In this document: positions 3,076-64,000 of the stretch, one piece after another
Layout: each line of letters begins with the position of its first letter
Numbering within the stretch: position 1 is the stretch's first letter
Assembly: GCF_000026545.1 (NCBI RefSeq)
Contig: NC_011601.1
Strand: one strand, 5' to 3'
Length of the DNA stretch: 64,000 nucleotides
DNA from: Escherichia coli O127:H6 str. E2348/69
GTDB lineage: Bacteria; Pseudomonadota; Gammaproteobacteria; Enterobacterales; Enterobacteriaceae
The notes under the pieces: model-generated
What the model saw: the letters and a program-made list of their open reading frames with translations, nothing else
Told to the model about the DNA's origin: nothing
The model's database searches: none
Made by a program: the position numbers and the translations under genes

Positions 3076-3774
3076 ATGCAAAAAAACGCTGCGCATACTT
3101 ATGCCATTTCCAGCTTGTTGGTGCTTTCACTAACCGGCTGCGCCTGGATACCCTCCACGCCGCTGGTACAAGGGGCGACCAGTGCACAACCGGTTCCCGG
3201 TCCGACGCCCGTCGCCAACGGGTCTATTTTCCAGTCTGCTCAGCCGATTAACTATGGCTATCAACCGCTGTTTGAAGATCGTCGACCACGCAATATTGGC
3301 GATACGCTGACTATCGTGTTGCAGGAGAACGTCAGCGCCAGCAAAAGCTCCTCTGCGAATGCCAGCCGTGACGGTAAAACTAATTTTGGCTTTGATACTG
3401 TGCCGCGCTATTTGCAGGGGGTGTTTGGTAACGCTCGTGCCGATGTCGAAGCCTCCGGTGGTAACACGTTCAACGGAAAAGGCGGGGCCAATGCCAGCAA
3501 TACCTTTAGCGGTACGTTGACGGTGACGGTTGACCAGGTACTGGTCAACGGCAACCTGCATGTGGTGGGTGAAAAACAGATCGCTATTAATCAGGGTACC
3601 GAATTTATTCGCTTCTCTGGCGTGGTTAATCCACGCACTATCAGCGGCAGCAATACCGTACCATCTACTCAGGTGGCGGATGCGCGCATTGAATACGTAG
3701 GCAATGGCTACATTAACGAAGCGCAAAATATGGGCTGGTTGCAGCGTTTCTTCCTTAACCTGTCGCCAATGTAA
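3076..3774 (+). CDS. flgH: flagellar L-ring lipoprotein FlgH
   Basis: ORF 3061-3774; start set at internal Met (MQKNAAHTY...) to give the expected 232 aa; lipobox LTGC. Confidence 0.9.
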
Positions 3775-53546: not shown

Positions 53547-56018
53547 TTAAAAATCAGCCTGATTCGGGATCAGTTTTTGCCAGATAGCTGAAACGTATTT
53601 TGCCTGGTGACGAGCGTCATCAAGTGCATTATGGCGCTCACCTTCGAATGGAATAGCCGTTCTGGCATCGAAGTCTATGGCTTTCCCCAGCTCAACGATT
53701 GTGCGTACATCGCGATCGTTGTAGTAACGCCACGGGCAGGGGATCCCCTGCCGTTCGTATGAACGGCGCAAAATCGTGTTGTCGAAGTTGGCTCCATTTC
53801 CCCAAACCTGAACAAAAAATTCACCGGAGTTTTCGTCGATAAATTCCCGCAATTGTAACAGTGCATCATCTAACGGGATTTCATCGGTCATAATGGCAGA
53901 TTGCGCTTCGCGTGATTGCTTAAGCCACCATTTAATGGTGTCCCGATCAATGACTCCGCCAGCAGTTTCCAGATCGATAGTCTTACTAAATTCCGGTCCC
54001 ATATCTCCGGTTTGCGGATCGAAAAATATTGCACCTATTGAGATGATCGGGGCATCAGGATTTTTTCCCATGGTTTCAAGGTCGATCATTAGATGGTCAC
54101 ACGTCCTGCTGGTGGATGTGATTTCGTGATGACCGTTCACCTTAATTGAGTGATCTGCCGTCTCGCCAGTCTCATTATCGCTATTGTGATGCTGATTGCC
54201 GCCAGTGTTCTCCTTGTGTGGATGCTCAGCGCCTTCCATTTCCTCCGGATCATCTTCCTGAACTTCAACCTGATACTCTTCATCGAATGTTTCCTGGTAT
54301 GTTGCGTCGCCCATCACCGCACCACAATCAGGGCAGTTGCCGCCGCCGGTCTGACCGCAGGCGGTGCAGACTTTTTCCACTTCCTGTTGCACTACTGGTT
54401 CAGGTAGTTTCGTTTCTGGCTCGTTTTGTTGCGTATTTGGGCTGTTTTGTTCCGCTTTCTGGTCGTTCTGTTCCGTTTCTTGCTGGTTCTGGTTCACAGA
54501 ATCGCGGGTTTCAATCCCCTTCACCCATTTCGGATCATTCGGATCGCTAATCCCTGCAACAAATTCACCACGTGATACTGCAAGCAGTTCATCGGCGTCA
54601 GGCTGGCTGATATTGGCTGCCTGCATAATTTTGTTTACTTCGTCAGCGGTAACTTTTACCGGCCCTGGTTGTGCGGTCGTGTCAGATGCACCAGTATTTT
54701 GTTGTGAACCTGAGTATGTACCGTTTTTGCGGGCGAAATATTCTTCTTTCGTGATTTCAGTAGCCCCTGCAGCCAGTGCCTTATCCAGACCAGAAAGTTT
54801 GTTTGCGCGACCGTATTTTTCGCTATCCTTGTCGGTGAAGAGGAAGTAGAACGGCCCTTCACGCTCTACAGATGGTTCGACTTCCACTTTGCATTCGGTT
54901 TTTTCGTTGTCCGGAATTGCCGTTTCCACTGCATCAGTTTCTGGTACTGGCGACGAGAGAGTATCAGTTGCGCTCTGATTTGTTCCTTCATCTTCAAACA
55001 CGCCCTTTGTAGTCAGGTATTCAGTAATGTATTTGTTCAGTGCCACAGGGTCTTTGTGAATGTCGATCGGACGTTCACGGACAAGGCCAAAAATAGTCTG
55101 GCGGTCGTAGCGAAGGGCATCAGGCTGTTTGCGCATTGATGCCGAGATACGCTTCCAGTCTTCGCGGTAGTTGTCGATAACTTCATTTTTTGCCCAGCGA
55201 TGGATGCTGCCGTCAATGTTTCCGGCATCCACATCACCAGGCCAGAGAGCGTAGGCCAGTTCGTCATCCAGTGTTTTCCATGTCTGCTTGTATTCGCGAT
55301 GAGTGGCAGCAATGACCGGGCTGATTTTTCCTGTTGAATTTTCAGTGTTCTGTTGATTGGCTCTGGCGCGGGCGAGATCAACAACAGACGTGTATTTTCC
55401 GGTTTCCTTGCGTTCACCTTCGCGACGTTTTTTCCAGATGCGCATCTCTGCCTGAATTTCGGGCCATTTGGCACCAGGCTTACATTTATGCTTAACCCAC
55501 CCGATGGCATGCAGCTTAAGCTCCGGATACATGGCGTTAACTTCTGGCATTTTCATCAACGCTTCAACGATATGTCCGTCGAATGTTGCCATGTCTTCCT
55601 GCAACAATTCCTGTGCGCTAATCACCATATCAACGGTGATGTTTTCACATGTGTCGAACTTAACCATGACAGCGTTCTGTACTTCAGGGGCCAGCTTGTC
55701 AAAAGTGACGTTCATCGGATCGGATTCAGTCTCAACCGGGACAAAAGAAGCAGAATCCTCATCCCAGCGGTTTTCCTGCATATATTCAGCATCCCATGAA
55801 TCGAGGGCAGGGCGGGGTATGCCAGGTTTATCCTCGCAGACAATAAATTTATAAGCGCAGTCCTGAGCAGCCGGATAATGTTCCAGGAATTGCCAGTGAA
55901 ATTTTGCTCGAGCACGGCGTTCGTCGCCAGCTTCAATGGCTGTGGCTACAGCCACAGCGCCTTCTTCCCTTGTTGCCAGTTCGTCAGGAATAGCGGCGCA
56001 AATAAAGACTTTACTCAT
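53547..56018 (-). CDS. prophage exonuclease with C-terminal DnaQ-like (DEDDh) 3'-5' exonuclease domain
   Basis: ORF 53547-56054 (alternative start MSKVF at 56018); C-terminus has DLETMG and HNALDDA motifs; central Gln/Asn/Glu-rich linker and a Cys4 cluster CTACGQTGGGNCPDCG. Confidence 0.7.
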   Translation of the reverse strand: MSKVFICAAIPDELATREEGAVAVATAIEAGDERRARAKFHWQFLEHYPAAQDCAYKFIVCEDKPGIPRPALDSWDAEYMQENRWDEDSASFVPVETESDPMNVTFDKLAPEVQNAVMVKFDTCENITVDMVISAQELLQEDMATFDGHIVEALMKMPEVNAMYPELKLHAIGWVKHKCKPGAKWPEIQAEMRIWKKRREGERKETGKYTSVVDLARARANQQNTENSTGKISPVIAATHREYKQTWKTLDDELAYALWPGDVDAGNIDGSIHRWAKNEVIDNYREDWKRISASMRKQPDALRYDRQTIFGLVRERPIDIHKDPVALNKYITEYLTTKGVFEDEGTNQSATDTLSSPVPETDAVETAIPDNEKTECKVEVEPSVEREGPFYFLFTDKDSEKYGRANKLSGLDKALAAGATEITKEEYFARKNGTYSGSQQNTGASDTTAQPGPVKVTADEVNKIMQAANISQPDADELLAVSRGEFVAGISDPNDPKWVKGIETRDSVNQNQQETEQNDQKAEQNSPNTQQNEPETKLPEPVVQQEVEKVCTACGQTGGGNCPDCGAVMGDATYQETFDEEYQVEVQEDDPEEMEGAEHPHKENTGGNQHHNSDNETGETADHSIKVNGHHEITSTSRTCDHLMIDLETMGKNPDAPIISIGAIFFDPQTGDMGPEFSKTIDLETAGGVIDRDTIKWWLKQSREAQSAIMTDEIPLDDALLQLREFIDENSGEFFVQVWGNGANFDNTILRRSYERQGIPCPWRYYNDRDVRTIVELGKAIDFDARTAIPFEGERHNALDDARHQAKYVSAIWQKLIPNQADF

Positions 56019-56110
56019 TTGTTTTAACCTCATGACAGATTTAAGGATGAACAAATCCCTGCCATTGCTGGCATATAAGAATGAAACCGGATATTTATTA
56101 CGGAACTGTT

Positions 56111-56302
56111 TTAAAGACCTGCCGGGATTTCGATATTATCCTGGTGAATAACTTTATCGACCGGGTAACAGTTACCGGGAATTTTCTGTTCGGTTGCTGC
56201 AGTCATACACTACTGCATTGTCCTGTGAACACTGACTGCAATATCAACTGGCTCTCCGGAAACAAGAAAAACTGTCAGAACAAGCACAAATGCTGAATTC
56301 AT
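56111..56302 (-). pseudogene. ydfD: ydfD-like lysis-protein gene interrupted by an in-frame amber codon
   Basis: MNSAFVLVLTVFLVSGEPVDIAVSVHRTMQ then TAG, then the frame continues CMTAATEQKIPGNCYPVDKVIHQDNIEIPAGL; total length equals a 63-aa gene; start overlaps the dicB stop as ATGA. Confidence 0.6.
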
Positions 56303-56487
56303 TGTGCACATCCTTTTGGCATCAGACGTAAACGAGCCAGCATTGAAACAATGCATATTTTATTTAATAGCTCCCGTTCTTGTTTTCTCTTGTTAATGGC
56401 ATCTTCAGTAAATACTGGGTTACTGATAGTGACACCAATTTCAAAACAACCTTCAGACGTATTAACGTTTGGTAATAACGTTTTCAT
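56299..56487 (-). CDS. dicB: cell-division inhibitor DicB
   Basis: 62 aa from internal Met (MKTLLPNVNTSEGCFEIGVTISNPVFTEDAINKRKQERELLNKICIVSMLARLRLMPKGCAQ); lies downstream of dicF in the dicA-side operon. Confidence 0.75.
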   Translation of the reverse strand: MKTLLPNVNTSEGCFEIGVTISNPVFTEDAINKRKQERELLNKICIVSMLARLRLMPKGCAQ

Positions 56488-56656
56488 TATCGCGTCCTCA
56501 ACAATGAATTTTGTGATGCAGTGCCTGGTGCCTCCAGGTGACGTTAACCAGTTAACAATTAACGCCGGATACAGAGAATCCACCCATAACACTGTTTTTG
56601 GTTTTAACTGTTCCGCGTGCGCTCAGCCGCATTCACCACATCACAAAATTCACTTT

Positions 56657-56714
56657 AAAAAGGGCGGCAGAGCAGTCACGGAGTAAAACTGATACCGCCA
56701 AACGTCACCAGAAA
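56657..56714 (-). ncRNA. dicF: DicF small RNA
   Basis: Minus-strand sequence TTTCTGGTGACGTTTGGCGGTATCAGTTTTACTCCGTGACTGCTCTGCCGCCCTTTTT matches the recalled DicF sequence including its terminator hairpin and U-tail. Confidence 0.75.
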
Positions 56715-57055
56715 ATTGATAACAGAGGGCGTTGCAGCGGGGTTGTCACTTAAGCGTATGGTCAACCTGACAACCCGGTGTCCTCAACGGGGGAAGGAAT
56801 AACCCCGCCATACTTACCGCCGCGCCATTTCGCGGATTGCCACAACCGGAAGCGCACGGTCGACGAAAATTTAACGACAGGCTATCTATGAACCAGCTAC
56901 CTCGCCGTGCGCTTTCGCGTTATGGTCTGACTTTTCAGGGAAATATCCTTTCAGTAAACTGTCAGTGCCGGATGCTCACCCGTGTCCGGCGCACGCACTC
57001 CACCTCATCCGTGGAGAACTCCTTAATTACCAACCTTAGCTTCGTTGGTTAGCTA

Positions 57056-57274
57056 TTAACGCGGGTATGTAATCATTCTGGCAATGCTTAATGTCGCTGC
57101 TTTTTCCAGATTAGTGATATCCTGCTCCAGAGCGGACAGATTTTCAGCCTGCTTAGCCCTGGCTTCATTGGCCCATTTCAGATCCTGCGCTGCATTAATT
57201 TTCTGGCGCATCCACTCATAAAGTTCATCATCGGTATAGTCTGGCGCGATGATGACGGGTTCTCGTTTCTGCAT
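57056..57274 (-). CDS. ydfC: Qin-type small prophage protein YdfC-like
   Basis: 72-aa ORF in the expected position and size between ydfB and dicF. Confidence 0.6.
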   Translation of the reverse strand: MQKREPVIIAPDYTDDELYEWMRQKINAAQDLKWANEARAKQAENLSALEQDITNLEKAATLSIARMITYPR

Positions 57275-57303
57275 ACTGATTCCTCGCGGTGCTGTTTCGC
57301 TTA

Positions 57304-57432
57304 TCAGCCGTTAGATTTTGCCGAACTGGAAAGTGCCTGTTTAAATTCGCTGAAGCTGAGAGCTTCTTCGCCTTCGGCAAGACCTTCGAAGTATTCTTCG
57401 TAAGCCTTTTCCATGATTGTGTCGAAATCCAT
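57304..57432 (-). CDS. ydfB: Qin-type small prophage protein YdfB-like
   Basis: 42-aa ORF (MDFDTIMEKAYEEYFEGLAEGEEALSFSEFKQALSSSAKSNG), below the ORF-track cutoff; found by direct translation. Confidence 0.55.
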   Translation of the reverse strand: MDFDTIMEKAYEEYFEGLAEGEEALSFSEFKQALSSSAKSNG

Positions 57433-57433
57433 A

Positions 57434-57589
57434 TCACCCACCTGAATTTCTTTCCAGCCAGCGACGCGCTCCAGATTCGGTTTTAAACGTTTTGCTTTTG
57501 GTATACGTCATCGCGGTGAACGTACCGTCCTGGTTGGGGAACACGCCACATACCAGAGATTCGCTGTTGCCAAGATCGATAGTATCCAT
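57434..57589 (-). CDS. ydfA: Qin-type small prophage protein YdfA-like
   Basis: 51 aa from internal Met (MDTIDLGNSESLVCGVFPNQDGTFTAMTYTKSKTFKTESGARRWLERNSGG); the ORF-track frame extends to 57682. Confidence 0.55.
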   Translation of the reverse strand: MDTIDLGNSESLVCGVFPNQDGTFTAMTYTKSKTFKTESGARRWLERNSGG

Positions 57590-57780
57590 GTTGACCTCAT
57601 TTCCCCTTAACGCCGGGGTAGCGGAACTGTTTGCTGAGAACACCGTGCGGTGTCTTGATGGATCGTAATTTAGTTTTCTCATGAATATTGATCAAGTGCT
57701 TTTGATGATAAAACTCAATATTTAATGCAAAATAAAGCCAATACATTGAAATGTAAGGCTTTAAAATTTGTGAAGGGGGG

Positions 57781-58188
57781 TTATTGATGTTTGTTACGTT
57801 TGCGAGCTTCTAGTAGCTCGGTGAATAGGCGATTAAAATTCTCAACGCGGGCACGGAGTTCGCTGATTTGTGCTTGCTGCTCTGATTTTGGAAGTGCGCG
57901 ATACAATCGCAACATCTCCAACTCATCTTCCGATAAGTCTAAGGCGCTGTTGAGTGCAACTGGTGGATCTGGTGTTTTATCCTCGTCACCAAACAGTATC
58001 CAAGTTGGTGAACATTGCAATACCTCAGCCAGGCGATGCAAATTTTGCCCGCGCGGGGCTGTATGGTCGCTTTCCCATAGTGAAATTGATGAGCCAGATA
58101 CGCCAGCAGCTTTGCTTAAATCGTTTTGACTTAAACCAACCTGTTTGCGTCTTTCTCTAATTCGTTGACCTAAAGTTTTCTCGTTCAT
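57781..58188 (-). CDS. dicA: prophage repressor, DicA-like (XRE-family HTH)
   Basis: 135-aa ORF; HTH region QRIRERRKQVGLSQNDLSKAAGVSGSSISLWE and the VLQCSPTWILFGDEDK segment recalled from DicA. Confidence 0.85.
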   Translation of the reverse strand: MNEKTLGQRIRERRKQVGLSQNDLSKAAGVSGSSISLWESDHTAPRGQNLHRLAEVLQCSPTWILFGDEDKTPDPPVALNSALDLSEDELEMLRLYRALPKSEQQAQISELRARVENFNRLFTELLEARKRNKHQ

Positions 58189-58209
58189 ATTTAGATATCT
58201 TAATAACCC

Positions 58210-58239
58210 TTGACTTGAGATTCCTTGAGTGATTACTAT
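58210..58239 (+). promoter_or_regulatory. candidate rightward promoter and operator region of the dicA/dicC switch
   Basis: -35 TTGACT (58210-58215), 18-nt spacer, -10-like TACTAT (58234-58239); three TTGAG pentamers 11 and 14 nt apart. Confidence 0.4.
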
Positions 58240-58265
58240 TGAGAAAACTCAACTTTGGAGGGGTG

Positions 58266-58493
58266 ATGTTTAAATCAGACGTAATTAATTTTTATGGGAC
58301 GAAAGCCAAAGTAGCGAAAGCTGCTGGTGTTGATCCATCTGCTGTTTCTCAATGGGGGGAACTGGTTCCTGAAGGTCGCGCGATGCGCCTGCAAGAGGCA
58401 TCCGGCGGGGAACTTCAGTACGACCCCAAAGTTTATGACGAATATCGTAAGGCAAAGCGGGCGGGGCGGTTGAACAATGAAAATCACCCCTGA
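58266..58493 (+). CDS. dicC: Cro-like regulator, DicC-like
   Basis: 75 aa from internal Met (MFKSDVINFYGTKAKVAKAAGVDPSAVSQWG...); divergent from the repressor gene. Confidence 0.75.
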   Translation: MFKSDVINFYGTKAKVAKAAGVDPSAVSQWGELVPEGRAMRLQEASGGELQYDPKVYDEYRKAKRAGRLNNENHP

Positions 58494-59028
58494 ACAGGTT
58501 TGTGAGGCTCTGGATGCCTGGGTATGCCGACCAGGAATGACACAGGAGCAGGCGACGATATTAATCACGGAAGCATTCTGGGCTCTGAAAGAACGCCCGA
58601 ACATCGATGTTCAACGCGTCACGTTTAATGATGGCGAGGTTGATCAACGGGCGCTGTGCGTTAACCGGGTGAAGATATTCGAACGCTGGAAAGCTATCGA
58701 CACCAGGGATAAGCGGAAAAAATTCACGGCGCTGATTCCGGCAATTATGGAGGCTATCCGAATTAGTGATTTCAGGCTGTATCGTGAGATCAGTGATGGA
58801 AAAAGCATTACGTACATGATCGCCGGATTAAACAAAGAATATGGCGATGTGGTGGAGTCCGGGCTGCTTTTTGCGGATCCATCTGTTGTGGAACGTGAGA
58901 CTGACGAGCTTATAGAAAAAGCTATTGCTTTCAAGCATGCGTATCGTCAGCAATATCAATATTACTTTGCAGATAAACAAATGTCTGCCAGGGGTTCGTA
59001 TGAGTATCGATGCACTACGATGGGCTAA
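58477..59028 (+). CDS. prophage early protein, YdaT-like (CII-analogue family)
   Basis: 183-aa ORF overlapping the dicC stop; segment KFTALIPAIMEAIRISDFRLY resembles the recalled YdaT core; function uncertain. Confidence 0.5.
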   Translation: MKITPEQVCEALDAWVCRPGMTQEQATILITEAFWALKERPNIDVQRVTFNDGEVDQRALCVNRVKIFERWKAIDTRDKRKKFTALIPAIMEAIRISDFRLYREISDGKSITYMIAGLNKEYGDVVESGLLFADPSVVERETDELIEKAIAFKHAYRQQYQYYFADKQMSARGSYEYRCTTMG

Positions 59029-60040
59029 AAAGGTGAAAACCGGCAGTTCATCCAGTAAGTCTGTATTGACCTGGCTTGCTGATATGTGCGGTGCCGATTT
59101 GTGTGCATACCCGTCTGTATCTGCACTGGCAGAAGTAACGGAACTGAACAAAAAGACTGTGCAGGACAGCTTACGACACCTGATGGAGATTGGGTTAATT
59201 GTTGATACCGGTGAGAGAAAAGGCAGAACAAAGCAAATTGTGGTGTACCGACTTATCGGTGTAGAAGAAAGTGTTGCCGAGCCTGAATACACCCAAAAAC
59301 GGGAGTCTTTAAAGGTGGGTAAAATCGGTGCTGTTAATAAAAACAGTACCGAAAATGGTTATGTTTCAGCACAAAACAGACCCAAAAACGGAACTCTTAG
59401 CTGCATGGAAAATAACCAAAGACACCCAAATTTTCCATCAAAGACACCCAAAAACGGATCACGGAACCCAAAGGAACCCAAAGAGCTAAACCCCACACAT
59501 AACGCACGCGAGAGTGCTCCGACCAGTGAGCAGAAAGTTTTGTCGTTACAGGCTGCACCTCCTGTATTCCTGGATGGCCTGAGCGAACCCATCGAAAAAT
59601 TTCCGATGACCGATAGCTGGTATCCGTCACGGGATTTTCGACGACGGGCTGCGTTGTGGGGGATGGCTTTGCCGGAGACAGAATTCACACCTGCTGAACT
59701 TGCCGCCTTCCGGGACTACTGGGCTGCTGAGGGGAAAGTGTTTACGCAGATTCAGTGGGAGCAGAAATTCGCCCGTCACGTAAATCACGTCAGGGCGCAG
59801 GTTAAACCAGTCAGCAAGGGGGTAAACCATGCAGCAGCACCAGGTGACACCGCATCACGGGCAGTTCAGGAAATTCGGGCAGCACGTGAGCAGTGGGAAC
59901 GTGAAAACGGATTTATCAGCGACGGAAACGGCCTGGAAGCTGTGGGAACTCATGGGGGAGGTTTATTCGAACCGCTGGACCCAGAAGAACGGGGCCGCAC
60001 CTTCGAAGCTCTGGATTGCACAGATTGGTGCGATGACTGA
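59000..60040 (+). CDS. phage replication initiation protein (O-like, N-terminal winged HTH, DnaT-like C-terminal region)
   Basis: Start taken at MSIDALRWAKKV (ORF track 58925); HTH segment LAEVTELNKKTVQDSLRHLMEIGLIV. Confidence 0.7.
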   Translation: MSIDALRWAKKVKTGSSSSKSVLTWLADMCGADLCAYPSVSALAEVTELNKKTVQDSLRHLMEIGLIVDTGERKGRTKQIVVYRLIGVEESVAEPEYTQKRESLKVGKIGAVNKNSTENGYVSAQNRPKNGTLSCMENNQRHPNFPSKTPKNGSRNPKEPKELNPTHNARESAPTSEQKVLSLQAAPPVFLDGLSEPIEKFPMTDSWYPSRDFRRRAALWGMALPETEFTPAELAAFRDYWAAEGKVFTQIQWEQKFARHVNHVRAQVKPVSKGVNHAAAPGDTASRAVQEIRAAREQWERENGFISDGNGLEAVGTHGGGLFEPLDPEERGRTFEALDCTDWCDD

Positions 60041-60494
60041 GCAGAAAATCCGACAGGTCTGCCGCCAGTGCATGGACCGCTGCCGGGCGGGTGAAACATG
60101 GCCTCCGGACCTGGCTGAGTTTGTGGCGCTGATTTCTGAAAGCGGAGCCAATCCATTCGGTCTGACGGTGGATGCCGTGATGGAGGAGTACCGTCGCTGG
60201 CGCAACGAGTCCTGGCGATACGACGGGAGCGATAAATACCCGTGGTCTCAGCCTGTGCTGTATCACATTTGCCTCGAGATGCGTTCAAAGGGGATTGAGC
60301 GGCAGATGACCGAAGGGGAGTTAAAACGGCTTGCAGAACGGCAGCTGACGAAATGGGCAAAGCATGTTAGTAACGGCCTGAGTGTTCCGCCAGTCCGGCG
60401 ACAACTGGCGGCACCCAAACGCCCGTCGGGGCCAACGCCAATTGAGTTGCTGAAACAGGAATATGAACGCCGGAAAGCGGCTGGGCTTGTCTGA
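59829..60494 (+). CDS. phage replication protein, lambda P-like (helicase loader)
   Basis: 221-aa ORF; C-terminal DKYPWSQPVLYHICLEMRSKG parallels lambda P (ESYPWKSNAHYWLV...); overlaps the O-like gene out of frame for about 210 nt; start uncertain (alternatives 59952, 60033). Confidence 0.7.
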   Translation: MQQHQVTPHHGQFRKFGQHVSSGNVKTDLSATETAWKLWELMGEVYSNRWTQKNGAAPSKLWIAQIGAMTEQKIRQVCRQCMDRCRAGETWPPDLAEFVALISESGANPFGLTVDAVMEEYRRWRNESWRYDGSDKYPWSQPVLYHICLEMRSKGIERQMTEGELKRLAERQLTKWAKHVSNGLSVPPVRRQLAAPKRPSGPTPIELLKQEYERRKAAGLV

Positions 60495-60526
60495 GTTGAG
60501 AAGTAATTTTTACCGGGAGGAAATTT

Positions 60527-60801
60527 ATGGAGACTGTTTTTGACGCACTGAAAGCAATGGGAAAAGCCACATCCATAGAACTTGCTGCGCGCGTGAAGAA
60601 GTGCTGAACGAACTATGGGAACTGAAAAAGGCTGGTTTTGTTGATAAAAGCGCGTACACCTGGCGTGTGGCTGATAACAACGTTCAGCAGGAACAGCCAG
60701 CGCAGGCAGAACTGCCGGAAGAAACCACCACAATGAGTGAAGTTATGCAGCGCATACTGGCATTTTATCAGGGAAATGTTCGATATTTTAGACGTTACTA
60801 G
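60527..60801 (+). pseudogene. small prophage gene split by a frameshift
   Basis: [26 protein letters not shown] then stop at about 60605; the reading frame continues after a 1-nt shift as ...[25 protein letters not shown]...RYFRRY (60601-60801). Confidence 0.45.
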
Positions 60802-61240
60802 ATTAAAGAGCATTAGTTCAGATGTGAATTGACATTGTGTGGCACAGGGTTGGGCTAGCGTGGGGGTTTGCTTTGTGTAAGAAACGGATGCTCTGCAAAT
60901 TACTACTAATGCTTAATGTTAGTCTGATCTGCTCCCCGATGATTAATACACCGCTATGTTAGTAATGTCTGTAGATCGCTGTGTGTTGCATCCATCGGTT
61001 GACCCCACAGTCCAAACCAGACTGTCAGCTTTGATTCGATTCTATCTACTCAACCTGTCAGGTAATGTCTGAGCTAATACACAGAGTACGGCTATCGCGA
61101 ACTTTAAGCTAGGTATCTGATACGCACCGTTCACTTGGTCGTACTTCTTGCACTGACTAGCTATCGTGCGCAGTTATTTATAGGTAATCTCCAGTGTATA
61201 ATTTTCCAACTTATGGGAGATTGTAAAACAGGAGGAATAT

Positions 61241-62083
61241 ATGAGGAAAAAATCGTTTGGACGTTGCCCGTTTGATTTCGACGAAGATGTAAAAAAAATA
61301 GCCGCGATAAATAAATATATCCATGCGAAATTTGAGAGGCATAAAAATAAAATAGATAACCTAAAGGGGGTGGAACAAAAATTGATGGTTTTACATTACT
61401 TTAATGTACTGAATGAACTTAGTAATCAGGCTATATTTTCTTTGAGTACCGGAGCCTTTTCAGCATCGGAAGTATTAACTAGAGTTATAATGGAACAGGC
61501 TGCCAATCAATTTTATATAGCAATTGATGATGGAAAAAATGCACAAGCATTACTCAAGGGTAGTAAGAAATTAGTTCATAGTAATGGGAAACGGTGGCTG
61601 GAGTGTTTAAAATCCAAAGAAATGACTAATCCAGCAGCAGATGAAAGGATTCGTATCGGAAAAGAGCTAACTGATATGTTTAATAGATTGTGGCCAAATA
61701 CACCTGAATATCCTGGAACCAAAAAGCTTTTCGAAGTAATTGGCTGGGAAACACACTATCATGCCTATTACGTCCCTCTTTGTGATTCAATACATACATT
61801 CTCTGATGATATGGCAAATATAGTATCTCTATATAATGCAATCCAAAGCGATAAAACTACTGCTATCGAACTCACTCTTGCAGTTAAACAAGAAAATAAA
61901 CGGCTGGCAATTTATAATGTCGTAATTGCTATTGGCCTGCGGTGTGAGGCCTTAGTAAATGTATTTAACTCTTTAGGTTATCGAGATATTATAACTGAAA
62001 TGGCGCCAACAATAGATGCAGTCAACCAGATTATAATTCGATATGATGATTTCGAACATTCCAGAATTTTTTATTGTCAATAA
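61241..62083 (+). CDS. hypothetical protein, AT-rich cargo gene (predicted mostly alpha-helical; function unknown)
   Basis: 280-aa ORF with AGGAGG SD 7 nt upstream and TATAAT -10 at about 61196; Lys/Ile/Asn-rich codon usage unlike the flanking prophage backbone. Confidence 0.7.
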   Translation: MRKKSFGRCPFDFDEDVKKIAAINKYIHAKFERHKNKIDNLKGVEQKLMVLHYFNVLNELSNQAIFSLSTGAFSASEVLTRVIMEQAANQFYIAIDDGKNAQALLKGSKKLVHSNGKRWLECLKSKEMTNPAADERIRIGKELTDMFNRLWPNTPEYPGTKKLFEVIGWETHYHAYYVPLCDSIHTFSDDMANIVSLYNAIQSDKTTAIELTLAVKQENKRLAIYNVVIAIGLRCEALVNVFNSLGYRDIITEMAPTIDAVNQIIIRYDDFEHSRIFYCQ

Positions 62084-62140
62084 TTAATTGGCAGAATTCG
62101 TACATGCACAACAACTAGTTATAGTTGACCTATTTCGCTC

Positions 62141-62709
62141 TTGAGAGACAACCATACTCAAATCTTCCACATTGCAGGAGATTTGAGTATGAATACGTCA
62201 CCGAGGAACAAAGACAGTATCATAGGCCCAAAAAGACCACTTCAGATATCTCATATCTGGGGGCTCCAAATCCGGCTTGAACTGGAAGGTAAAACGCGTG
62301 ATTTAGCTCGGTTTCAAGCAGAGCTACGGTGCTGCAACTGAAAAACTGGCAGTCCTATCCAATTTGAGATAACCAAAGGGACAAGAGAAGCTGTTTCTGC
62401 ATTGATAAAGCTTGGCAATTTACGCAGTAAAGACTACTTGTTCCGATCTCGGGTCGGTACTAACCAACACATATCAATCCTGCAATATAACCGAATCTTT
62501 CATAGGAGGGAGAAAAGCTTGGTCTCGAAGATTCGCTTTACAGCACACATTCCATGAGAAGAACAAAACCTTGCCTTGTCTGCAAGAAAACTAAGAATCT
62601 CCGGGTGATCCAACTTCCGTTGGGCCATAAGAAAACGGAAAGCACAGTTCGTTATCTGGGTATAGAAGTTGATGATGCATTAGAGATCTCTGAATCGATC
62701 GAAGTCTAA
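62141..62709 (+). pseudogene. decayed tyrosine recombinase (integrase-family) gene
   Basis: Recombinase segments spread over three frames: ...KRPLQISHIWGLQIRLELEGKTRDLARFQAELRCC / FEITKGTREAVSALIKLGNLRSKDYLF / SMRRTKPCLVCKKTKNLRVIQLPLGHKKTESTVRYLGIEVDDALEISESIEV (HxxR...Y catalytic tail). Confidence 0.6.
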
Positions 62710-62715
62710 AGCTGT

Positions 62716-62737
62716 CAGGGCTGCAGCAGCAGCCCTG
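62716..62737. repeat. perfect hairpin (9-bp stem, 4-nt loop) immediately after the recombinase relic
   Basis: cagggctgc-agca-gcagccctg; no U-tract follows, so not a canonical terminator. Confidence 0.5.
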
Positions 62738-63121
62738 TGCCAAGAGCGTACCAATATATGTCTCAAAAAATTGGGCACAGGTCAATATCAATACCAACAA
62801 CTCTGATTGTGCTCATGTGATTTACTCCTGTAGAAAACGCAGACAGTAAAAATATTTCACTGGCTGCTTCAGACAGGGCGTCCATCATATCATTACATAA
62901 CAATAGCGGGGCACGATATCTAGACATGCAGCAACGATGGACATAGAATGAGTACAATCAAAAGCATGTTTAACTACTTTAATTTAAAAATCTTAGAATC
63001 TTAGGTGTAGAGTTCAATACTTAGTTACATACCCTTTTGAAAGCATCACAAATCATAACTATGAGCCTGTTAAAGGCATAGGTATTCTTAATTAAGAGCA
63101 TTTTAATGAGAGAAAAATAAA

Positions 63122-64000
63122 ATGAAAAGACTATATTATACCCATCATGATAGTCGAACCTTAAAACTTGCTATAGAAGGTGATGTTTCTGATAATGCGA
63201 ATATTTTTACAGTAATTGTAGGTAAAAATGGCGTTGGAAAAAGCAGATTGTTATCTCAGATTGCTAAAGACTGTATTCAAGATATTCATTTCTTGAAAAC
63301 TTTTAATCCATTATTTGACAGAGAAATAACACCAAAGTTAATTGCCGTATCTACCAGCCCATTCGATAAATTCCCTCCAGGGCGTAGGTCATTAAATCAC
63401 CAAAGGAAAGAAAATAATTATCGCTATGTGGGTATGCGTGGAGAAGGCCCCTTCGGCGTATCAAATGCCGTATCCCTTTTATCTTCAGCAGCGAGAGGTT
63501 GGCTAGAGAAACTTGCTTATTCAGAAAATCCTGCAAATTTACTCGATGTTTTTCATTCTATTGATTTTGAGCCCCATATAGAGTTTGTATTTAAACCAAC
63601 TTACAACGGACCGGACACTCCTGACTATAACTTCATTGGTGTATATTCAGATGAGATATTAACGGAAGTTAAGGAGTTATATTTAAAATACAATATAAAA
63701 ATTGACAGGAAGAATATTGAGAGTCTCTTAAAGTTAAACTCCGAATCACGTCATGATATTTACGAAGCACTGGTTGAAATTAATCGATTTGAACCTGAAC
63801 GTAGGGCTGTAACCTTGTCAGTCGATTTTACCAATGGTGAAACATTGGTTGGCTCGACTTATGCGAATAATTATTTTTCTAGATCAATTCTTAAACTTAT
63901 GAACGCTGGCTTCATGAGATTGATGGATATGCGACTCATAAAAAAAAGCTATGGTCCCATGTCACTTAAACGTGCGAGCTCGGGAGAACAATGTTTATTA
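63122..64000 (+). CDS. ABC-type (AAA_15/AAA_21/OLD-like) ATPase, N-terminal 293 codons; runs off the window end
   Basis: Open frame from the ATG at 63122 with no stop to 64000 (absent from the ORF track for that reason); Walker A VIVGKNGVGKSRLL near residue 33; ABC-signature-like SSGEQ at the last codons; AT-rich. Confidence 0.7.
   Translation, partial: MKRLYYTHHDSRTLKLAIEGDVSDNANIFTVIVGKNGVGKSRLLSQIAKDCIQDIHFLKTFNPLFDREITPKLIAVSTSPFDKFPPGRRSLNHQRKENNYRYVGMRGEGPFGVSNAVSLLSSAARGWLEKLAYSENPANLLDVFHSIDFEPHIEFVFKPTYNGPDTPDYNFIGVYSDEILTEVKELYLKYNIKIDRKNIESLLKLNSESRHDIYEALVEINRFEPERRAVTLSVDFTNGETLVGSTYANNYFSRSILKLMNAGFMRLMDMRLIKKSYGPMSLKRASSGEQCLL

Follow-up and report, generated by a model that had tools for sequence, protein, structure and literature searches.

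A doubly lesioned DUF1627/YdaW pseudogene remnant beside the replication protein P gene of a lambdoid prophage in Escherichia coli E2348/69

Background

In phage lambda, the slot directly after the replication gene P is occupied by ren, and in Rac-like/lambdoid prophages the same slot holds a gene of the DUF1627/YdaW family, whose intact copy in E. coli ST69 encodes a 250-aa protein (WP_032218143.1, annotated as DUF1627 domain-containing protein). Prophages of the mEp460 type carry DUF977/LygF genes (PF06163, phrog_142) in this slot after their replication genes; LygF of mEp460 is 133 aa long, matches PF06163 at 94.8 bits, and falls into phrog_142, the 'Ren-like exclusion protein'. The ydaW gene of the K-12 Rac prophage is a further member of the DUF1627 family and is itself a pseudogene, cut short at the C-terminus in a prophage undergoing decay and annotated as 'incomplete; missing C-terminus'. 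The length of YdaW varies between strains (PMC9308461), and an overexpression screen reportedly identified the truncated K-12 ydaW fragment as a blocker of RcaT, the toxin of retron-Sen2 (bioRxiv 10.1101/2020.06.22.160242), so fragments of DUF1627-family genes are not necessarily inert.

Here, we analyzed this slot in a stretch of 64,000 nt from the chromosome of E. coli O127:H6 str. E2348/69 (hereafter "the window"), which contains a lambdoid prophage integrated beside potC. The original prediction described a small gene after a P-like gene that was split by a 1-nt frameshift around 60600, with a 26-codon ORF continued by 66 codons in the adjacent frame. In RefSeq/PGAP, the identical E2348/69 locus is H4J01_RS14565 (window 60527-60729), a pseudogene for a DUF1627 domain-containing protein, 'frameshifted; incomplete; missing C-terminus'. 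This annotation says neither how large the indel is nor that the tail stems from a DUF977 gene, and haplotypes with a single lesion do not appear in it. From alignments with intact and singly lesioned homologues, we conclude that the locus is very probably a non-functional remnant of a DUF1627/YdaW gene, disrupted by a 13-nt deletion and by truncation with in-frame fusion to the end of a DUF977 gene.

Results and discussion

Two reading frames from one interrupted gene

Within the compared interval, 58900-62500, the window and the reverse strand of the E2348/69 chromosome (NZ_CP059840.2) show 100% identity, and window coordinates equal those of the E2348/69 locus (L001) plus 55399. In the RefSeq annotation of this identical sequence, the P-like gene is the replication protein P gene at 60033-60494 on the plus strand (L001 4634-5095). 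The two predicted ORFs are both present after it: ORF1 at 60527-60607 has 26 codons, starts with ATG, and stops at TGA (60605-60607), and ORF2 at 60601-60801 has 66 codons, from a GTG start to TAG (60799-60801), in a frame that lies at -1 relative to ORF1 and is open from 60544. The GTG at 60601 overlaps the TGA of ORF1 (GTGCTGA), and a GGGAGG ribosome-binding site at 60515-60520 on the plus strand, 6 nt 5' of the ATG, is kept in all aligned homologues.

Residues 1-23 of ORF1 are identical to residues 1-23 of the intact 250-aa homologue at 21 of 23 positions (E=6e-13), and the ORF2 frame matches residues 27-73 with 47/49 identities (E=6e-33). Because both match consecutive parts of one protein, their pairing is not due to chance and, on these alignments, ORF1 and ORF2 are consecutive pieces of one DUF1627/YdaW-family gene, which agrees with the prediction of a single interrupted gene. 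Codons 1-21 and the first two bases of codon 22 are retained in the original frame at 60527-60591 (plus strand), and what remains of ORF1 past 60591 is an out-of-frame run to the TGA. Codons 27-73 follow at 60592-60732 (plus strand) in what is now the -1 frame, with the CGT at 60592 encoding Arg27 and the 'GTG start' of ORF2 corresponding to Val30 inside the ancestral gene. What is left of the gene is orthologous to a full-length DUF1627 member, as indicated by collinear DNA, the same slot, and the neighboring P gene. The ST69 gene resembles the window copy in its slot directly after P, its ribosome-binding site, and its start codon, and the two loci share ~93% nucleotide identity over 59480-60732, including codons 1-73; compared to ST69, the window copy is without 13 nt at codons 22-26 and without everything past codon 73. 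K-12 ydaW is ~92% identical to the window over 60493-60732 but, unlike the window copy, keeps the 13 nt as well as about 150 codons, so that it is cut elsewhere, and it is followed by rzoD and trkG where the window has the DUF977 tail.

No single frame of ~250 codons is found in the window copy: it stops after 26 codons, the frame is regained only when 13 nt are inserted, and the gene then ends at codon 73. Given these disrupting lesions relative to intact homologues, which are seen in independent assemblies, the locus is, at the level of sequence, a degraded pseudogene. In the intact protein, PF07789 (DUF1627) matches at 321 bits over aa 88-242, and phrog_630 spans aa 1-247 as one protein. 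The 95-aa product obtained by restoring the 13 nt to the window gave no PF07789 match in a Pfam search, because the aa 88-242 region is deleted. The N-terminal ~60 residues gave sub-threshold matches to winged-helix families (HTH_20 at 26.7 bits against a cut-off of 27, and also TrmB, MarR_2, HTH_Crp_2, and others), from which we infer that the unit at about aa 1-60 is winged-helix-like. A sequence search of the PDB with the intact protein found nothing significant (best E=0.16), and PADLOC gave only weak partial matches for the DUF1627 protein, the best at 20.7 bits, to helix-turn-helix portions of CARF/Csa3 models.

A 13-nt deletion near codon 22

Alignments with ST69 and three further genomes place the break between 60591 and 60592 (plus strand), within 10 nt of the predicted position. 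The lesion is not a 1-nt indel, a possibility that these alignments rule out: 13 nt are missing (ACTTGATATCAGT in intact alleles), so that 70-nt spans in the deleted alleles correspond to 83-nt spans in the intact ones and the net shift is one base. The deletion takes the third base of codon 22 together with codons 23-26 (L-D-I-S), and no flanking microhomology is present. It would fall in the turn between helix 2 and the recognition helix of the putative winged helix-turn-helix (wHTH).

A 70-nt probe centered on the site reached a coverage of at least 80% in 780 genomes, K-12 included. A contiguous 70-nt match was obtained in 16 records, all complete E. coli genomes, whereas all other full-length matches listed span 83 nt and thus have the 13 bases (~760 genomes). 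The 16 deletion-bearing assemblies come from different submitters and from humans, chickens, a giant panda, a rabbit farm, cucumber, and seawater, and include a re-sequenced E2348/69. Since it recurs in 16 independent assemblies, the deletion is a genuine allele passed on by inheritance rather than an error of sequencing. The comparison with other prophages called for by the original prediction thus returned intact homologues, and the ~760 genomes have one uninterrupted gene at this site rather than two independent small genes.

The deleted 13 nt also make up the loop and the top three pairs of an inverted repeat, CGCGACT-N7-AGTCGTG, in intact alleles (e.g., at ~3185-3215 of locus L002). This repeat contains an EcoRV-type palindrome, GATATC, about which the deletion is symmetric. 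A hairpin-driven origin of the deletion was considered and is unsupported, as the fold is weak (-5 kcal/mol, z=-0.94, equaled by 40/200 shuffles).

A blunt junction to the end of a DUF977 gene

The last codon homologous to DUF1627 is ACA (Thr73, codon 73 of 250), which ends at 60732. DUF1627 homology stops there and DUF977 homology starts at 60733 (plus strand), joining DUF1627 codon 73 in frame to DUF977 residue 120 with no shared base and no microhomology. By alignment with the 141-aa DUF977 protein of strain 13KWH46 and by Pfam/PHROG assignments, 60733-60801 (plus strand) is the end of a DUF977/LygF ('Ren-like', phrog_142) gene, namely its last 22 codons (60733-60798) and its own stop codon, the TAG at 60799-60801. 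This tail matches DUF977 3' ends with the same stop codon in more than 1,200 E. coli genomes at 80-95% identity. The homology continues through 60802-60888 (plus strand), non-coding DNA that normally lies 3' of DUF977 genes, as seen by BLAST of the window against loci L010, L011, and L006 and by alignment, so that DUF977/LygF genes of mEp460-type prophages are the source of the last 22 codons, the stop, and ~90 nt downstream (60733-60888). The window thus retains only the C-terminal 22 of 141 DUF977 residues, and PF06163 accordingly found no match in the repaired chimera in a Pfam search.

ORF2 is therefore a continuation of the same gene, as predicted, only up to 60732, with its last 22 codons and stop being of DUF977/LygF type. 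The prediction of a plain frameshifted gene also missed that ~70% of the gene is absent, including the whole DUF1627 domain; even with the 13 nt put back, the window gene ends at codon 73, and a repair of the frameshift would therefore not restore it. The junction is carried by 16 genomes, of which strain Z1323PEC0010 has it without the deletion and so possesses an uninterrupted 95-codon DUF1627(1-73)::DUF977(120-141) chimera.

The mEp460_ev081 copy of LygF (L006 2144-2545) has one extra T (GGGATAATG vs GGGAAATG) and ends at 133 aa, compared to 141 aa. Judged from mEp460 alone, the tail NVRYFRRY plus stop could be explained by a T missing from the lygF stop and consequent read-through, an idea that is ruled out by the 141-aa chromosomal DUF977 genes. 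Because these end naturally at the window's stop, the additional T is a feature of the mEp460 record, where it may be a real variant or a record error.

A replication cassette within DUF977-type flanks

On the minus strand, the upstream part of the prophage runs from a 3'-5' exonuclease gene through dicB, ydfC, ydfB, and ydfA to a helix-turn-helix repressor gene, and on the plus strand DicC/Cro, a YdaT-family gene, a DnaT-like gene, and replication protein P (60033-60494) precede the remnant. DUF977-type prophages (13KWH46, RM9088, and mEp460) are ~90.5% identical to the window over 57844-58959 (repressor, cro/dicC, and ydaT), have no homology over 58960-60732, where they carry a different replication gene, and regain homology over 60733-60888. 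The replication cassette at 58960-60732 (plus strand; DnaT-like gene, P, and the DUF1627 5' fragment) is thus without a counterpart in these prophages. The ST69 prophage shows the reverse: around the junction, it is homologous over 59480-60732 only, apart from a 61-nt match at 57568-57628. Because the DUF977-type prophages share only the flanks and ST69 the opposite, the DnaT-like/P/DUF1627' cassette is a swapped module within DUF977-type flanks, whose right edge is marked by the DUF1627 fragment as a scar.

The region right of the junction is a cargo island that comprises, on the plus strand, a DUF5677 gene (phrog_4167; 61241-62083), an integrase pseudogene or fragment (62189-62709), and a Septu pair, together with an IS481 element, after which hokD and nin-like genes follow. 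PADLOC assigned the Septu genes (L001 7723-9718 for the pair) to the PtuA AAA ATPase (E=1.9e-165), which starts at 63122 and runs past the window end at 64000, and to the PtuB HNH endonuclease (E=1.1e-83), which lies on the plus strand beyond the 5' part of ptuA, outside the window; the DUF977 and DUF5677 proteins had no PADLOC match. In the counterpart stretch of ST69, the DUF1627 gene continues to its end, and four small genes come before hokD. Among 5,426 complete E. coli genomes, none was found with the arrangement of a right-hand parent, in which an unbroken DUF977 gene would precede this DUF5677 island.

Several further features were observed around the locus. The DUF5677 gene and the integrase fragment after it form a cassette. 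A P2-like prophage of IHE3034 (L008 4338-5391) matches the 5' end of the DUF5677 gene and its upstream DNA (query 60924-61300) at ~86%, with an integrase fragment after it, and this match sits between tail-fibre-assembly and tail-sheath genes. This site is a recognized P2 hotspot for anti-phage cargo, and since a matching copy sits there, DUF5677 may be an uncharacterized defence or moron gene. In the non-coding stretch 5' of the DUF5677 gene, genome CFSAN004176 has a 4-nt insertion (ATTA) at window 60941. The DicF antisense sRNA was detected at 56662-56713 on the minus strand (Rfam RF00039, 76.7 bits, above the gathering score) next to a sub-threshold STnc100 match at 56455-56664 (minus strand; 34.4 bits vs 47), as expected for a Qin/Rac-type immunity region with dicB. 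These two were the only Rfam results over 56000-64000, with no RNA family in 60300-61300, including the 440-nt gap after the remnant, and a scan of 60300-61300 for promoters and terminators gave nothing above chance. As a further sign of decay, the E2348/69 record, identical in sequence, lists the lysis protein gene ydfD (56111-56302, minus strand) as a pseudogene interrupted by an internal stop.

Four haplotypes and a crossover between the lesions

A five-way alignment of the window, ST69, Z1323PEC0010, Z1322HEC0010, and CFSAN004176 shows all four combinations of the two lesions. ST69 represents the intact haplotype, the junction alone is found in one genome (Z1323PEC0010), and the deletion alone is also found in one (Z1322HEC0010), whose gene is otherwise full-length and noted as 'frameshifted' by PGAP. 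The double-lesion haplotype is that of the window and 14 other genomes (15 in total), such as CFSAN004176. These four haplotypes are compatible with either lesion having arisen first.

Over 58900-60731, the window and the deletion-only genome Z1322HEC0010 do not differ (100% identity). Relative to the junction-only Z1323PEC0010, it differs by 56 substitutions and a 1-nt indel in 58938-60654, and by 3 substitutions only in 60655-62145, while the 78 nt at 60655-60732 are common to all alleles. Because each lesion exists alone in one genome and both occur in the window, homologous recombination is implied. A second, independent origin of the same blunt junction is most unlikely, which requires at least one crossover between homologous sequences in the interval separating the lesion sites. 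From the distribution of these differences, this would most simply be a single crossover inside 60655-60732.

Competing explanations

Could the gene be continuous in the real genome, with the frameshift an error of sequencing or assembly? Single-base indels are common among assembly errors and the original prediction assumed one, but the difference here is 13 nt in non-repetitive sequence, with no homopolymer slip, it recurs in 16 complete assemblies of varied strains, hosts, and submitters, the re-sequenced E2348/69 among them, and the corrected gene would still end at codon 73, so we consider an error exceedingly improbable. We likewise give almost no credence to programmed -1 ribosomal frameshifting that would join both frames into one functional product, for which a heptamer of the form X XXY YYZ, G GGA AAA, lies in the zero-frame register at 60559-60565, inside the frame overlap, and resembles the slippery site of the lambda G/GT genes, G GGA AAG. 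Homologues have a single frame: ~760 genomes carry the extra 13 nt, phrog_630 covers nearly the full intact protein, and, among the matches listed, the two-frame layout occurs in 16 genomes only, all through the same deletion. Past the heptamer, residues 14-22 of ORF1 still agree with the homologue in the zero frame, so that a slip would swap the conserved helix 2 for unrelated sequence, and in intact alleles, the -1 frame after the heptamer meets a TGA inside the 13-nt segment. The 85 nt at 60566-60650 have a folding energy of -14.9 kcal/mol, where shuffles average -16.1 (z=+0.43), i.e., without a stimulatory structure, and because the heptamer is also present in intact single-frame alleles, it is probably incidental.

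The strong ribosome-binding site 5' of ORF1, the overlap of GTG 60601 with the TGA, and the unchanged state of the doubly lesioned allele in 15 genomes would all suit two independent functional small genes, one for a peptide of 26 aa and one for a protein of 66 aa that is translated from the GTG by termination-reinitiation. Against this, the GTG is ancestral Val30, the split lies within the helix-turn-helix, and no family has such a layout, which is seen, among the matches listed, only in the 16 deletion-bearing genomes. Persistence in 15 genomes fits recent common descent and not selection, because the nucleotide identity is 99-100%, and as the layout exists only where the deletion does, two independent genes are unsupported and, in our view, very unlikely. 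The ribosome-binding site and the overlapping GTG could nevertheless allow reinitiation and some residual function of the 26-aa or 66-aa products. More speculatively, the 95-codon chimera of Z1323PEC0010 could be a functional mini winged-helix protein formed by module shuffling, and the 26-aa and 66-aa pieces of the window might still act, e.g., as an anti-defence factor, an idea suggested by the activity of the truncated K-12 YdaW fragment against the retron-Sen2 toxin; we regard this as highly improbable.

A model for the origin of the remnant

We favor a history in which a DUF1627/YdaW gene of a lambdoid prophage decayed through two lesions and recombination. Illegitimate, blunt recombination at 60732/60733 would have fused the DUF1627 gene after codon 73, in frame, with the final 22 codons of a DUF977/LygF gene. 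As DUF977 genes fill the same slot in a related phage type, the junction would be one edge of a mosaic exchange, which would have put the DnaT-like/P cassette beside the cargo island with the DUF5677 gene, the integrase fragment, Septu PtuA/PtuB, and IS481. The 13-nt deletion at 60591/60592 would shift the frame and split the putative helix-turn-helix, leaving a 26-codon ORF and an out-of-frame continuation, and the two lesions may then have been brought together by one homologous crossover in 60655-60732. The sequence comparisons directly show both lesions, where exactly they lie, how often they occur, and the four haplotypes, whereas the order of events given here is a proposal, the lack of function is likely, and the wHTH assignment, which builds on the sub-threshold Pfam matches, is tentative.

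Conclusions

The locus is a case of ordinary gene decay and mosaicism in a lambdoid prophage, in substance already known through its RefSeq annotation as a pseudogene, to which our analysis adds the 13-nt size of the indel, the DUF977 origin of the tail, the context of a module swap, and the four haplotypes. It also carries a caution, as 'repairing' the frameshift would not regenerate a DUF1627 gene. The replication cassette within DUF977-type flanks represents a clean modular exchange with one illegitimate edge, and the four public haplotypes illustrate, on a small scale and cleanly, how lesions are reshuffled between lambdoid prophages by homologous recombination over less than 140 nt.
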